A DNA stretch of 64,000 nt from an uncultured archaeon (lineage in GTDB: Archaea > Asgardarchaeota > Thorarchaeia > Thorarchaeales > Thorarchaeaceae), in NCBI GenBank assembly GCA_964473825.1, contig CAYYQL010000003.1:10627-74626 (forward strand). Direction: 5' to 3'. The notes beneath the pieces are model-generated. The model ran no database searches. It was not told the DNA's origin and saw nothing but the letters and a program-made list of their open reading frames with translations. Positions 14,297-20,896 of this stretch are shown one piece after another (position 1 is the first letter of the stretch; each line of letters starts with the position of its first letter). The position numbers were made by a program, and so were the translations under genes.

Positions 14297-16405
14297 CTAT
14301 GGCACATTCAGGCTCTCAGAAGTCTGAACATTGTCATCTGGGACATAGGTGTAGCCACTCTTGACAAGATTAGTCACGGTCGATGTGTACGTACCTTTCT
14401 GACTGGAACTCGCCTCATAGACGAACGTGACACTTCCGTCCGCTCCTGTATTTGCACTGCCCGTTGCGATTCCGCCACCGGGTAGTTCCATCTCAAGGTA
14501 TACAGTCACGCCTTCCAAAGCATTTCCGCTTCCATCATGTACCGTTACCTTTGTGAAGACATCGTAGCCAATGACGAACCACCACCATCTCACTGTTTGA
14601 TACCACATGTCGATAGATGCAACATGCATCGAGTTCTCGCCATAAGTGGTTGCAGAGGCGGGGTCAGACTTCTGCCCCTCGTTGCCCGAGGTGTCCACAG
14701 CTGAGACTTCGTAGGTGTAGGTTGTTTCCGAGGACAGACCACTGTCTGTATAGTAGTTGTTGATCGTTTCCGCGATTTTGACACCATCACGGTATACGTT
14801 GTAGTGGCTGAGATCCTCCTCGGTATTTGCATTCCAGCTAAGGTCTATCTCCGTTTGCGAGATGGCATTGGCTGAGAGGCCAGTCACCTTATCGGGCGGG
14901 GTTGTATCGGGTGGTTCAGGGTCGGTTGTTGCTGAAGCCGAATCCGACTTCTCTCCCTCATTGCCTGAGGTATCCACAGCAGATACCTCGTATGTGTAAG
15001 TCGTTTCGGGTGAGAGACCTGTATCGCTGAAGTATGTATTGGTGGCTTCTTCGATTTTTGCTCCATCGCGATAGACGTTGTAGTGGCTGAGGTCTTCCTC
15101 GGTATTTGTATTCCAGCTTAGGTCTATCTGAGAATGGGAAGCTGCAGTAGCTGTTAGGCCAGTGACTTTTGCAGGTGGTGTGCTGTCCGGTGGCGTACCG
15201 TCACCTGCCTCATCAACAGCTGCCTTAGCGTTAACGAGGCCATAGCCATAGTACTGATCCCATCCTTGCTGTCCAAGGTCAACTGAGGTTGTATGCAAGA
15301 TGTTCCTTACCTCGGGTGCAGTCAAGTCTGGGTTTGCTTCACGAATGAGGGCTACAGTACCAGCCACCATCGGGCAGGCCATTGATGTACCGCTCATGGT
15401 ATCGTAGTTCTTGCTATATCCGCCATACCACCAGCTGTTCATTGTGACAGTGTATGTGGGCATAGTTGAGTATATGTCAACACCTGGCGCCACAACTTCC
15501 TGTTCGGGTCCGTAGTTACTGAAGCTAGCTAGCTGATGATTCTTGTCGATGGCTCCCACAGCAATGGCATTCTCGTATTTTGCAGGATAGGAAATAGTCC
15601 CCTTTCCGTCATTCCCCGAGGCTGCAACAACAACTATGTTGGCATCATATGCACGATTGATGGCAGCGTTGAAGGCACTGTCGTAGCTACCTCCGCCGAG
15701 GCTCATCGAGACGACGTGCATGTTATTATCCACCGACCAATCAATACCGGCAATTATGTCGCTGGTATAGCCCGAACCCTGATCGTCCAAAACTCGTACA
15801 GCGTAAATGGACGCCATTGGGGCAACACCTATGACTCCCTGATCATTATCTTCTGCCGCAACAATTCCTGCACAGTGGGTTCCGTGCCCGTGACCATCTC
15901 TTGGATCGTTGTCATTGTCTACAAAGTCGTAACCACCTGCGTAGACACCGTCCAAGTCTGGATGACCGTAGTCAATGCCCGTATCCAGTATCGCTACCTT
16001 GACACCACTCCCGGCAATATTGCCCGGAATGACATTTGTGGCACCTTCGGCTCCACCCCAGACTTGTTCCGCGTCCACATCATCAACACCCCAGTCAAGT
16101 GTGTCCTGAAACAGACTCATCTCCTCGTCGAGAGCAATGGCATCGACAAACCACATCGACTCAAGCGATTTATAGAGCCAGAGCGGCATCCTTGCTGCTA
16201 TCCCGTTTAGAGCACCGTATCGATGAACGATATCTGCATCGCGCAGATTCACATCGACACCAGGCTTGAACAGGATGACTGCATCGACTATCTTCTGTTC
16301 ACCAATAGTACCGGCCAGTGCGACACTTGCACTTGAAAAAAGAAGCAGTGGTACTAGAATGGCTGAGAAGAGCATAATTCTCTTTTGACTTCTCATCACA
16401 ATCAC
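14297..16405 (-). CDS. Secreted S8 subtilisin-like protease with propeptide, two FN3 domains and a C-terminal beta domain
   Basis: ILDTG, HGTH and GTSMA catalytic triad motifs; signal peptide; two YTYEVSAVDTSGNEG FN3 repeats. Confidence 0.95.
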   Translation of the reverse strand: MIVMRSQKRIMLFSAILVPLLLFSSASVALAGTIGEQKIVDAVILFKPGVDVNLRDADIVHRYGALNGIAARMPLWLYKSLESMWFVDAIALDEEMSLFQDTLDWGVDDVDAEQVWGGAEGATNVIPGNIAGSGVKVAILDTGIDYGHPDLDGVYAGGYDFVDNDNDPRDGHGHGTHCAGIVAAEDNDQGVIGVAPMASIYAVRVLDDQGSGYTSDIIAGIDWSVDNNMHVVSMSLGGGSYDSAFNAAINRAYDANIVVVAASGNDGKGTISYPAKYENAIAVGAIDKNHQLASFSNYGPEQEVVAPGVDIYSTMPTYTVTMNSWWYGGYSKNYDTMSGTSMACPMVAGTVALIREANPDLTAPEVRNILHTTSVDLGQQGWDQYYGYGLVNAKAAVDEAGDGTPPDSTPPAKVTGLTATAASHSQIDLSWNTNTEEDLSHYNVYRDGAKIEEATNTYFSDTGLSPETTYTYEVSAVDTSGNEGEKSDSASATTDPEPPDTTPPDKVTGLSANAISQTEIDLSWNANTEEDLSHYNVYRDGVKIAETINNYYTDSGLSSETTYTYEVSAVDTSGNEGQKSDPASATTYGENSMHVASIDMWYQTVRWWWFVIGYDVFTKVTVHDGSGNALEGVTVYLEMELPGGGIATGSANTGADGSVTFVYEASSSQKGTYTSTVTNLVKSGYTYVPDDNVQTSESLNVP
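14650..15190 (-). repeat. Intragenic tandem duplication encoding two FN3 domains (279-bp period)
   Basis: Near-identical blocks starting gtagtggctgag at 14801 and 15080; end coordinates approximate. Confidence 0.8.
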
Positions 16406-17156: not shown

Positions 17157-18356
17157 ATGGTGGCTTGGAGTAGTTATGGTCTAGACCTCAAGGACTATCT
17201 CATTTTTCTTAGCCACGAGAGAGACCCATCTCTAAGCAACAGCGCGATTAGCAAGGAGGTGAGTGAGAGAGTACCCATCTCCTCGGAGTCTGTCAGGATC
17301 CGAATCCAGAGGATGAAAGACTCGGGTTTCTTGCGTCCAGATCGTACAATCGAGGATCCTGTTTTGGGCAAGAGGACTCAGACAGAAGTGGAAGGCGTCT
17401 ACAGACCTCACCAATTGGGTCTTCTGCGTCAGCATGTACTCTTCGTGGGTGTTCTTGGGCGTTCATCGCTCGACAATCTCAAGACTCTCTGTGACGTCCA
17501 TCCCTACACGCATTTCCGTACAATAGGCTACAGCAGTGGAGCCACGCTCTATGCCCAGTTCGACATACCCCCAGCTGCTACCGAGCTGATGGCCAAGATG
17601 TATGCGGAGCTCAAGGAACGTAATCTGTTCCGTGGATTCCAACTCTACGAAACACAATCATTGGCAGAGCACGAAGCGGACTTTGACAAATGGAGTCTTG
17701 TTGAGAACAAATGGGCTGTAGAATATGGTACAAAGTCAGGAAGAGGCAGCCACCTGAGTCGCATTGAGAGCCTTTGGAGGAGATTTCACGACACATATGA
17801 TGGTCGCCCTCTTGAACCGTCCCAGCCTGAGATGGCATTCGGTTTCGATGAAATAGACCTAGCTCTCTTGAGAGAACTCACTATCAACGGAAAACCGGAT
17901 ATCAAGCCGCTGGGTCCAGTCTACAATCGAGATCCAACTACAATCTCAAGGAGGCTCAAGCGACTTAGAGAGAGTGTGGCACCAGATGTCATGCTCTACT
18001 ATGACAGGTCAGTCTTCGATCTGACCTATCCTCAACTCATGACCGGGCAGTTCAAAGAGGATGACGACCTCGATTCCGACAGCCTGTATTGGTTCGTACA
18101 ATCTGGAGGTATACCGTTTGAGTCTAAGGCTAGCATAGAGGAGAAACGCTTTGTTCTTTTCATCACGGCTCCTCCCTCAGTGGCCCCTGAAGTATCGGAG
18201 TTCATATGGGAACACACTCACAATCTAGATGTGTTTCAGCTGCAGCTTGATTCATCATTCACCTACTTCTTCTATCACAAGAACTATCTCGGTGATGGTG
18301 AGTGGAGAGCAGACGAAGAATACGTGCTCGATGAGCCCCTTGGAGAGGTATTCTGA
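17157..18356 (+). CDS. Tandem wHTH Lrp/AsnC-like transcriptional regulator
   Basis: Two HTH units: ISSESVRIRIQRM and DEIDLALLREL...PTTISRRLKRL. Confidence 0.75.
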   Translation: MVAWSSYGLDLKDYLIFLSHERDPSLSNSAISKEVSERVPISSESVRIRIQRMKDSGFLRPDRTIEDPVLGKRTQTEVEGVYRPHQLGLLRQHVLFVGVLGRSSLDNLKTLCDVHPYTHFRTIGYSSGATLYAQFDIPPAATELMAKMYAELKERNLFRGFQLYETQSLAEHEADFDKWSLVENKWAVEYGTKSGRGSHLSRIESLWRRFHDTYDGRPLEPSQPEMAFGFDEIDLALLRELTINGKPDIKPLGPVYNRDPTTISRRLKRLRESVAPDVMLYYDRSVFDLTYPQLMTGQFKEDDDLDSDSLYWFVQSGGIPFESKASIEEKRFVLFITAPPSVAPEVSEFIWEHTHNLDVFQLQLDSSFTYFFYHKNYLGDGEWRADEEYVLDEPLGEVF

Positions 18357-18542
18357 CCAGTTTCCATATGGCGTTTTTCGTTCAACTCTCCCGTGAAAAC
18401 GCTTTAGTAGAGGTTCTATCATACAATAAGGCGGTGGGTTGCTTGCAGGGAATCACGGTAAGTATACCACACCCAATGTATTGATGCCTTGCTGGCTCCC
18501 ACCTCTTGCTCATGGGCTGGCAGTGACGACCCCCGATAGTTG

Positions 18543-18571
18543 AAAGAGAGGGAGCATCATTCCCTCTCTTT
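18543..18571. terminator. 11-bp perfect hairpin just downstream of ahcY, probably bidirectional
   Basis: AAAGAGAGGGA-GCATCAT-TCCCTCTCTTT. Confidence 0.7.
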
Positions 18572-18579
18572 AGTTTCTT

Positions 18580-19867
18580 CTATGTTCCTTCAGCGTAGGC
18601 CTTGGCGTAGGCCTCCTGTTCGGGTGTCCACTCATCGATTTCGATGCCCATGGTTTCGAGCTTATCTCGCGCTGTCTTCTTATCGAGATCCTCCGGGAAC
18701 TCGTAGACGGCCGGCTTGAGATCCTTACCGTGTTCAGTGAGCCAGAGCATTGCGTTCAATTGGCCAGCGAAGGACAGGTCCATTACCTTTCTAGGAAGCG
18801 GCAACGAATGCCAACTTCTCGCTAGGATGTCCTTCAGCTGCCACCAGATTCACGAGTCTGCCCTCACCCAGCAGGTAGAGTCTGTGCCCATCCTTGGTTG
18901 TGTACTGGTCCAGAGCAGGGCGAACTCGCTTCTTATCCGTGGCAATCTTGTCCAGATCAGGTTCGTTGATCTCCACATTGTAGTGGCCAGCATTCCCCAT
19001 GATGGCGCCATCCTTCATCATCTTCATGTGGCGCCCCACAATCACATCTCTCATACCGGTGGCCGTGAGGAACAGGTCTCCCTTGGGAGCTGCCTGGTCC
19101 ATCTTCATGACCCGGAAACCGTCCATCCGTGCTTGAAGCCCTCGGACAGGGTCGACCTCTGTCACGATCACGTTTGCGCCGAGGCCTCTTGCCCGCTCCG
19201 CCATTCCTCTGCCGCAGAATCCATAGCCAGCAATAACCACGGTCTTTCCAGCAATTAGGATTGCCGAGGCTCTCATCACGCCGTCGAAGACACTCTGTCC
19301 AGTTCCGTACACATTATCGAACAGGTGCTTCGTGTCTGCATCGTTCACAGCCATAATCGGATACTTCAGCGCACCATCTTCTGCCATTGCCCGTATCCGG
19401 ATGACACCTGTTGTAGTCTCTTCAGACCCTCCATAGAGGTTCGGAATCAGTTCTTGGTGTTTGTTGTGCAATGTGAAGATGAGGTCTGCGCCATCGTCGA
19501 TGGTCAGGTTCGGTTCCTGCTTCAGTGTCTGTTCTATGCACCAGTAGTACTCCTCATTGTTCAGTCCATGCCATGCAAAGATAGGAATATCATTTGCTGC
19601 GAGCGCTGCCGCCACCTTATCATTGGTTGATAGCGGATTGCAGCCTGACCAGGCCACTTCTGCTCCTGCTTCTCTAAGAGTCTCGACGAGCACCGCCGTT
19701 TCCTTCGTCACGTGAAGGCATCCGGATATTCTCATTCCCTTCAGTGGTTTTTCCTTGGAATATCTCTCTCTCAGATGCATCAATACAGGCATGTGTTTCT
19801 CCGCGTAATCTATTAGACCCCTGCCTTCTTCGGCAAGTTGTATGTCTTTCACCTTATAGTCTGTCAA
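18580..19867 (-). CDS. ahcY: S-adenosylhomocysteine hydrolase split by a 31-nt intron: complement(join(18580..18788,18820..19867)), 418 aa
   Basis: CLHVTKET, CNPLST, DDGAD, EETTTG, KHLFDN, GYGFCG and GRLVNL motifs; spliced junction gives GHPSEVMDLSF; exons total 1048+209=1257 nt (419 codons including stop). Confidence 0.93.
18789..18819 (-). other. Bulge-helix-bulge (tRNA-type) intron in ahcY mRNA, 31 nt
   Basis: AUC-CUAG-CG^A-GAAG...CUUC-CUAG-AA^A-GGU: two 3-nt bulges around a 4-bp helix; canonical cuts restore the frame and the consensus motif. Confidence 0.88.
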
Positions 19868-19942
19868 GTGATTCTACCCACCGGTTTCTTTCAGTAGGAC
19901 TTATTTGAATCCTCCATATCTTACCGTAATGAAACGAAGATT

Positions 19943-20896
19943 ATGTGGCTGAATATAATGCAAATCATAACCGACGATGAGCAGAAGTTATTATGTGTCC
20001 TAGTTCGTAACTCTCGGGCTGATATCAAAGAAATCGCTTCTCAGATTGAAAAGGGACGCAACTGGGTTGCAAGAAAGATGAAACGGCTGGCTCAAAACAA
20101 CATAATCAGAGCATATACAACAACGGTCAATCCCTCCCTTGTATACACTGAGCGCAATACAATCCTACTCATCAAGTCGAATCCCCGTGAATTAGATGTC
20201 AGCAAGGCTCTCCTCGAAATAAAGGGCCTCGAGTCGCTTGACGGGGTATCTGGAGACTATTCTCTCCTTGGCCTGTTTCGATTTCGGAGGAATCAGTCTT
20301 TTGAACAATTCCTAGACAAGGTTGACCGTATTGTTGCTGCGTCTGATAGCAAGTCCTACCGGCTTGTGCAGGTATTGACGACATACAAGTCCGGAGGTTT
20401 TGTAATTGAGGAGCAAGATTCGGTCCGGCCACTCACATCTTCAGAACACGAGCTGATTCAGGTGATTCGTCGCCAATGGCCATCCGATGACCACCCCTAT
20501 CCCCCCTCTCAGAAGGAGATTGGTGAGAGAATGAGTCAGCCAATAACACAGCCCGCCGTTTCCAAGGCGATTAGTAGGCTAGAGGGCCGGAGTATCATCG
20601 TAGGTTATTCCCTCGGCCTGAATTTCGCATACTTGGGACTACCCATCAAATTCTTTCTTGAGATCAAGGTTCGGCCTGGAAAGATGCGAGCGACTGCGCG
20701 CTCCATTACAGAGATGGATGCAGTATGGGCTCTTCATCGGACAAGTGAACCCTACAGCCTCTTTGCAACGGTACGTTCCTCAGATATACAGCAATACAAC
20801 CTCTTCTTGCGGGAGCTCTATCAGAACCAAGATATCCTCGATACTCGTTCGCAGATCTCTCTTGAGGAGTGGTTCGTACCGCCTTACCAGGAATAG
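19943..20896 (+). CDS. Tandem (double) Lrp/AsnC family regulator, divergent from ahcY
   Basis: Two HTH plus RAM modules: NSRADIKEIA...VSGDYSLL and QKEIGE...QPAVSKAISRLE...TSEPYSL. Confidence 0.85.
   Translation: MWLNIMQIITDDEQKLLCVLVRNSRADIKEIASQIEKGRNWVARKMKRLAQNNIIRAYTTTVNPSLVYTERNTILLIKSNPRELDVSKALLEIKGLESLDGVSGDYSLLGLFRFRRNQSFEQFLDKVDRIVAASDSKSYRLVQVLTTYKSGGFVIEEQDSVRPLTSSEHELIQVIRRQWPSDDHPYPPSQKEIGERMSQPITQPAVSKAISRLEGRSIIVGYSLGLNFAYLGLPIKFFLEIKVRPGKMRATARSITEMDAVWALHRTSEPYSLFATVRSSDIQQYNLFLRELYQNQDILDTRSQISLEEWFVPPYQE

Follow-up and report, generated by a model that had tools for sequence, protein, structure and literature searches.

A candidate bulge-helix-bulge intron in the ahcY message of a Thorarchaeote encodes a conserved C-terminal peptide that may tag the unspliced product

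Archaeal mRNA introns and the ahcY insert

Within the searchable literature, a coding sequence spliced through a motif of bulge-helix-bulge (BHB) type is known in print for one archaeal gene, cbf5, whose pre-mRNA carries such an intron in Desulfurococcales and Sulfolobales and for which a role as negative regulator of expression has been proposed (PMC2738675). The cbf5 intron has been described as the only coding case, and as the only mRNA case beside the 5'-UTR intron of Haloferax HVO_1309, an EndA mRNA substrate that affects expression (PMC7714728). Asgard lineages are rich in introns, reported for tRNA genes only (PMC11291895; bioRxiv 10.64898/2026.10.13.758758), and the preprint among these sources makes no mention of mRNA or cbf5. 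In yeast, the unspliced product of HAC1 carries a 10-aa intron-encoded tail that acts as a degron (PMC5114014), and the RqcH/NEMF family adds Ala tails to proteins (PMC10591846). No report of introns in ahcY or in Asgard mRNAs was found in the literature searched, from which subscription journals are mostly absent.

We analyzed a stretch of 64,000 nucleotides (the window) from an archaeon whose close homologues are named Thorarchaeota, which identifies the host as a Thorarchaeote and agrees with an earlier note on this DNA that had called it a probable Asgard archaeon. In this window ahcY runs on the minus strand from 19867 to 18580, interrupted by 31 extra bases. The earlier note had read these bases, 18789-18819, as a BHB intron in the mRNA of this SAH hydrolase gene; the insert is indeed present, and on re-reading the sequence we found the proposed scheme of helices and bulges to be correct. 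The gene is otherwise intact and is single copy in a genome that is 96% complete. The features of the locus are as follows.

18820 to 19867, minus strand: ahcY exon 1, codons 1-349 and the first base of Glu350 (Pfam AdoHcyase and AdoHcyase_NAD)
18789 to 18819, minus strand: candidate BHB intron in ahcY, 31 nt (cut-register test and BHB test)
18580 to 18788, minus strand: ahcY exon 2, from the remainder of codon 350 to the stop, 68 more residues (AdoHcyase profile positions 226-291)
18785 to 18828, minus strand: full BHB motif including a weak outer helix (18828-18826 with 18787-18785) that is absent from the minimum-energy fold
18822 to 18825, minus strand: 5' strand of the central helix, 4 bp, exonic, in Pro and Ser codons
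18819 to 18821, minus strand: 5' bulge CGA, predicted cut 18820/18819 (sequence and EndA rule)
18795 to 18818, minus strand: inner hairpin, 9 bp with one bulged U and a 5-nt loop; three pairs changed on both sides
18791 to 18794, minus strand: 3' strand of the central helix, holding an in-frame UAG (18793-18791) of the unspliced RNA
18788 to 18790, minus strand: 3' bulge AAA, predicted cut 18789/18788 (sequence and EndA rule)
18791 to 18820, minus strand: read-through frame of the intron, a 9-residue tail (EKLAFVAAS) and a stop, predicted to end a 358-aa truncated AhcY
18543 to 18571, no strand assigned: terminator-like hairpin of 12 bp directly past the ahcY stop, between convergent genes (consensus match only)
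19943 to 20896, plus strand: divergent Lrp/AsnC-type regulator, which adjoins ahcY in several relatives too

Regulators of the AsnC/Lrp type lie on both sides of ahcY (19943-20896 and 17157-18356, both on the plus strand), and by inspection of the open reading frames the window also holds a subtilisin-like secreted protease with two fibronectin-III-like repeats (14297-16405, minus strand).

In archaeal splicing EndA cleaves each bulge behind its second base and RtcB ligates. The claim that this rule turns the two gene fragments into a 418-aa AhcY with the motif GHPSEVMDLSF was reproduced: 13 removal registers were tried, and this motif and length came from 0, +1 and +2 alone, all three with an identical product, and register 0 is the cut of the EndA rule and leaves the correct mature sequence. 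The central helix consists of four Watson-Crick pairs (CUAG 18825-18822 with CUAG 18794-18791). The two 3-nt bulges sit on opposite strands, each 3' of the central helix, and the 3' bulge hangs on the weak outer helix, which has three pairs (AUC/GGU, one of them G-U) and is retained in relatives. In the minimum-energy fold the central and inner helices were kept, and in place of the outer helix exon 2 formed a hairpin of its own and the exons paired in a distal stem (z = -2.1). A strict BHB at register 0 arose in 0.05% of 20,000 shuffled inserts; since 1,643 BHB-like shapes occur by chance in the genome, the shape counts only together with a register that restores the frame. Rfam covariance models (group I/II introns, riboswitches and others) gave no match near threshold in 18300-20300 of the window. 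In its sequence the ahcY insert has everything expected of a BHB intron apart from a firmly formed outer helix.

The genome encodes RtcB and two EndA paralogues. In our reading of the sequences, paralogue 1 has the Tyr/His/Lys catalytic residues and paralogue 2 is without the His, and as a catalytic and a structural subunit the pair would fit the two-subunit type that has been reported as common in Asgard archaea (bioRxiv 10.64898/2026.10.13.758758). The cbf5 gene of the host is an open frame of 346 codons. Many tRNA introns in this same host genome (G000) are about 30 nt long (many of them 29-31 nt, e.g. at C2:149443-149550), a size like that of the ahcY insert, and a tRNA-Sec gene was also called there. 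The further BHB introns in other genes for which the earlier note had proposed a scan did not emerge: a genome-wide scan of low sensitivity, blind to multi-intron genes, returned 129 frame-joining candidates against 97-120 in displaced controls, which is no excess. In its filtered list ahcY ranked second. A search for the donor of the ahcY intron among the tRNA introns and elsewhere in the genome found none, with no significant look-alike.

Like the cbf5 intron, the ahcY insert is a short BHB intron in a protein-coding gene with gains and losses, and EndA cutting is predicted for it. It differs from cbf5 in belonging to another gene and another phylum and in lying close to the gene's 3' end, at a site that has unrelated introns in four Asgard families, in genes with up to five introns, and it encodes a conserved C-terminal peptide; in ahcY, moreover, we infer the splicing from sequence. 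The HVO_1309 intron is located in an untranslated leader and leaves the frame unbroken, whereas the ahcY insert breaks it. With the tRNA introns of Asgard archaea the insert has in common the motif, a similar size, the lineages and a two-subunit EndA.

Inserts at the same junction in relatives

The 31 nt are genomic, as gap-free contigs from two studies (contigs of X1 and X3, which are possible sources of this DNA; a divergent relative in X1; and a relative in X5, which is another study) cross the insert and a second genome of the same genus carries it letter for letter. Of about 76 family genomes in which ahcY was matched, 13 have an insert at the same junction, which follows the first base of codon Glu350; as about five-sixths of the family genomes are without the intron, it is not essential. 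Outside the family, Atabeyarchaeia have same-site inserts of 34 nt, and two more Asgard families have them at 20-21 nt and 191 nt; the introns that the four families hold at this one ahcY site are unrelated. There were 29 distinct junction sequences, with inserts of 20, 21, 28, 31-35, 37, 38, 57, 59, 62 and 191 nt, of which 27 passed a relaxed and 14 a strict BHB test (nulls below 1%); in several relatives the central helix contains a mismatch, and two junctions fail even the relaxed test.

The compensatory changes that the earlier note had thought of for same-position inserts do occur in these relatives, central and inner helix pairs changing jointly. The central helix covaries over the exon-intron boundary (CUAG/CUAG versus CCAG/CUGG or CCAG/AUGG), and in eight aligned 31-nt introns three pairs were altered on both sides, with a covariation score that was reached by none of 500 shuffles, a result that relatedness inflates. 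Glu (GAG or GAA) is invariably encoded at the junction and Val directly after it, with third bases that vary synonymously; part of the set was collected with a pattern that requires this constancy, and the other sets were not so selected. Five pattern matches were dropped as chance hits outside ahcY (L031, L037, L041, L050 and L061), and a sixth (L043) as a gapped duplication. The full-length proteins P0168 and P0103 were rejected as spliced products, as they derive from DNA assemblies and represent intron-less alleles (near-twins), and so was P0002, which matches the intron-less genome G002 over the part compared. About 17 full-length Thorarchaeia AhcY proteins (P0011, P0027, P0036, P0076 and others) had no match to GHP[SAP] by script, and so have a variant active-site loop.

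Some relatives carry several inserts in the gene. In L090 and L091 (genomes G328 and G330, of one Asgard family; minus strand) ahcY has five BHB inserts of 28, 32, 27, 30-32 and 20-21 nt, the last two of which flank a 15-nt exon, and excision of all five gives a continuous frame. The ahcY of the complete genome G149 (L089), which belongs to another family, has three: a 56-nt insert near residue 153, a 29-nt one near residue 181 and a 191-nt one at residue 350. Its sister genomes (locus L094 in G153) have only the residue-181 site in common, where the inserts measure about 27-30 nt.

Judging by its anatomy, its conservation and the gene content of the host, we consider it very likely that the 31 nt are spliced from the ahcY mRNA. 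EndA would cut after the second base of each bulge and RtcB would join the exons, and only the spliced message would give full AhcY. The conserved His-Pro-Ser and Glu-Val codons would provide the outer helix and half of the central helix, and because exon codons supply these helix parts the site would be a ready landing place for introns.

To explain where the intron is present and absent, a fast AhcY tree with 142 rows needs 30 changes; shuffling gave a mean of 41.7, and branches with good support force at least 16. Intron types were discordant with the gene tree. Two near-identical pairs of genes differ by the intron. Synonymous differences at the junction versus upstream were 10/30 versus 4/161 in one pair and 17/56 versus 4/183 in the other, and this clustering at the junction disfavours precise, cDNA-mediated intron loss for both twin pairs. 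In about 15 family genomes the 3' end of ahcY recurs as an orphan copy, which frequently lies 1-4 kb downstream and frequently begins near the GHPS codons; at L020:3040-3253, L034:3983-4198 and L007:2707-2787 the identity is about 80%, and a single cargo gene separates the copies. The gene looks like an insertion hot spot with 3'-end replacement. The data suggest, two pairs being few, that incoming DNA replaces the ahcY 3' end and brings or removes the intron, which would be gained and lost between close relatives by recombination that exchanges this region.

The intron-encoded tail and what it may do

The earlier note makes no mention of a conserved C-terminal peptide encoded by the intron. 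The unspliced host message encodes nine intron-derived residues, EKLAFVAAS, and a stop within the central helix. Among 150 homologues classified by script, 50 end just after GHPS, with 23 distinct tails, and all 50, which were chosen without regard to the tail motif, carry A-F-x(0-2)-A-A-[S/A/L/F]-stop or a near variant. In the four core codons of 23 Thorarchaeia introns we counted 17 synonymous versus 3 non-synonymous substitutions (17:4 with one filtered-out F-to-L case), where a synonymous share of 0.275 is expected (p about 1e-7 for 17:3; the counts come from a spanning tree of related sequences, and p-values are optimistic), and the two codons upstream of the core gave 6 versus 23. Before the stop, length has changed at least six times (+3, +3, +6, +9, about +30 and -3), in each case by a multiple of 3, and the stop lies 2, 6, 7, 24 or 28 nt from the splice site. 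Identical peptide ends fall in different stem registers across the 28-, 31- and 32-nt classes, and in the 57-nt intron the end of the peptide lies in a loop insert. The 59-nt intron resolves into a hairpin of 32 nt and, nested inside it in frame, a cassette of 27 nt that gives a fresh tail, and by eye the 57-nt intron can be read as this nested type too, with its stop in the loop. The long introns at L071:1475-1533 (minus strand) and L101:1752-1808 resemble a 32-nt intron with a nested insert of 27 or 25 nt that renews Ala-Ala-Ser-stop. The introns of the three non-Thorarchaeia families do not encode the tail. From these patterns, the tail is very probably under selection at the protein level.

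We then considered what such a tail could do. The intron lies 1 kb into the message, and some ribosomes would therefore arrive before it is excised. On unspliced RNA, ribosomes of Thorarchaeia would read 8-18 intron codons and then stop, and the product would be AhcY minus its 68 C-terminal residues and with an Ala-rich tail. By Pfam, exon 1 holds the whole of the catalytic and NAD domains, and the truncated chain is without the helix after GHP and without the C-terminal part. This part of AhcY completes the adenine pocket and the subunit contacts; with its loss the truncated protein should be inactive and could poison oligomers. The tail would then remove an inactive subunit able to poison the oligomer.

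The motif is anchored at the C-terminus, and linkers of 2-13 residues between GHPS and the motif are tolerated, which is how terminal degrons behave and fits a degradation tag. PAN is encoded by the host, and GFP with an ssrA tag is degraded by archaeal PAN (PMC3493965). The C-termini of the proteome are mildly poor in Ala (0.67-0.75 fold); for xAAx ends the depletion is slight (6 seen versus 13.8 expected), which speaks against the tag. A gene of the RqcH/NEMF family is present in the host, and a tmRNA was not found in its genome. Like the ssrA and RqcH/NEMF tags, the tail is rich in Ala, hydrophobic and sits at the very C-terminal end of a protein left incomplete. The ssrA and RqcH/NEMF tags come in trans, from tmRNA or RqcH, whereas that of ahcY would be encoded in cis, and the tails end in AAS, AAA, AAL or AAF (usually AAS) and not in the ALAA of ssrA. 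As in HAC1/XBP1, where a tRNA ligase acts, the proposed splicing would be a protein-only cutting and ligation of mRNA, with a short intron-derived C-terminal tail if the message stays unspliced; in HAC1/XBP1, however, Ire1 cuts two stem-loops under stress regulation and the target is a transcription factor, and the ahcY motif is one BHB. The likeness to HAC1/XBP1 is best seen as analogy, not homology. By membership ahcY belongs neither to the HAC1/XBP1 system nor to the ssrA tags, and it would resemble both in logic.

We put the chance that the tail serves as a built-in degradation tag for the unspliced product at roughly even. The complete proposal, EndA/RtcB splicing of mRNA in Asgard archaea combined with an intron-encoded C-terminal degron in Thorarchaeia ahcY that destroys the unspliced product, is more tentative, its chances being somewhat below even. 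Taken as a whole, the best explanation of the locus, which we hold to be very probable, is an EndA/RtcB intron whose tail is under protein-level selection, a built-in degradation tag being the likeliest role of that tail.

Three other readings accept the spliced intron. In the first, the tail would act as a nascent peptide that pauses the ribosome at the intron stop, perhaps depending on SAH, SAM or homocysteine, and thereby opens or blocks the BHB as a metabolite-controlled splicing switch. Arrest peptides that sense metabolites exist, as in TnaC and plant CGS1, the ahcY peptide is conserved right up to a stop that lies within the splicing helix, and the 3' side has an alternative fold. Tolerance of linkers of 2-13 residues and of three different stop codons, and the free loss of the intron, make such a switch rather improbable. 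Slightly less probable still is that the conserved peptide is a by-product of RNA structure and the tail has no role. Within the hairpin, third codon positions do pair with each other and the bases of the stop codons belong to helices, UAG in the 31-nt class to the central helix, so that the stop codon is partly set by pairing. Such a by-product is at odds with the synonymous bias, the in-frame indels and the occurrence of the same peptide in differing stem registers, and also with a pairing-only simulation, which retained the motif in 2-62% of runs per sequence. In the third, which we regard as unlikely too and the least favoured of these, the truncated 358-aa protein would be a useful isoform, an SAH sensor or an inhibitory subunit comparable to eukaryotic AHCYL1, in which the tail replaces the lost helix. 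Animals have inactive AhcY-like regulators, the catalytic and NAD domains of exon 1 are whole, and a predicted model renders the tail as a helix; the tail has a pLDDT below 50 in what is a mediocre model, and the motif is fixed to the C-terminus, not to GHPS.

Readings without splicing, and implications

Without splicing, ahcY might be a split gene, in which the 358-aa piece and a 67-aa piece starting at a Met codon after the insert form one enzyme. Gene callers do predict the 67-aa piece and AGGU immediately precedes its AUG, but a split would leave the BHB, its covariation and the Glu and Val codons retained at the junction unexplained, and five inserts in one ahcY cannot be split points, which makes this reading very improbable. 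A programmed, antizyme-like +1 frameshift at UCC-UAG, giving a long protein with a 10-residue insertion, is hardly credible. The 31-nt class has this sequence and requires +1, but same-site inserts of 32, 35, 38, 59 and 62 nt would require -1, those of 33 and 57 nt keep the frame but contain a stop, none of 100 full-length homologues has an insertion at the motif, and the two solved relatives shown align with it gap-free. Unlike the antizyme/prfB type, with its constant offset and shift site, the insert lengths cover all three classes modulo 3, and this removes +1 frameshifting despite the suggestive UCC-UAG. An assembly error or a decaying pseudogene, as a frameshift in a metagenome-assembled genome might suggest, has next to no probability, since this is the sole ahcY copy, its exons are whole and two studies have contigs with the insert, as do dozens of genomes. 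As far as sequence comparison goes, the same-site inserts, their three frames and the compensatory helix changes reject artefact, pseudogene and +1 frameshifting.

Beyond introns of the cbf5 kind, the new element is an intron that appears to be dual-coded, which as far as we searched is unpublished. Gene callers truncate these AhcY enzymes. If the intron is spliced, then in the closest relatives of eukaryotes the tRNA machinery would splice mRNA as a functioning step of gene expression. How introns can exist without a nucleus is a long-standing question of eukaryote origin, and a dual-coded intron may indicate how a cell with coupled transcription and translation tolerates them. The tail may also reveal a natural archaeal C-degron. 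If that were true, ahcY would be a prokaryotic counterpart of the HAC1/XBP1 logic in the lineage closest to eukaryotes, and the clearance of SAH would possibly be tied to the RNA-processing capacity of the cell.
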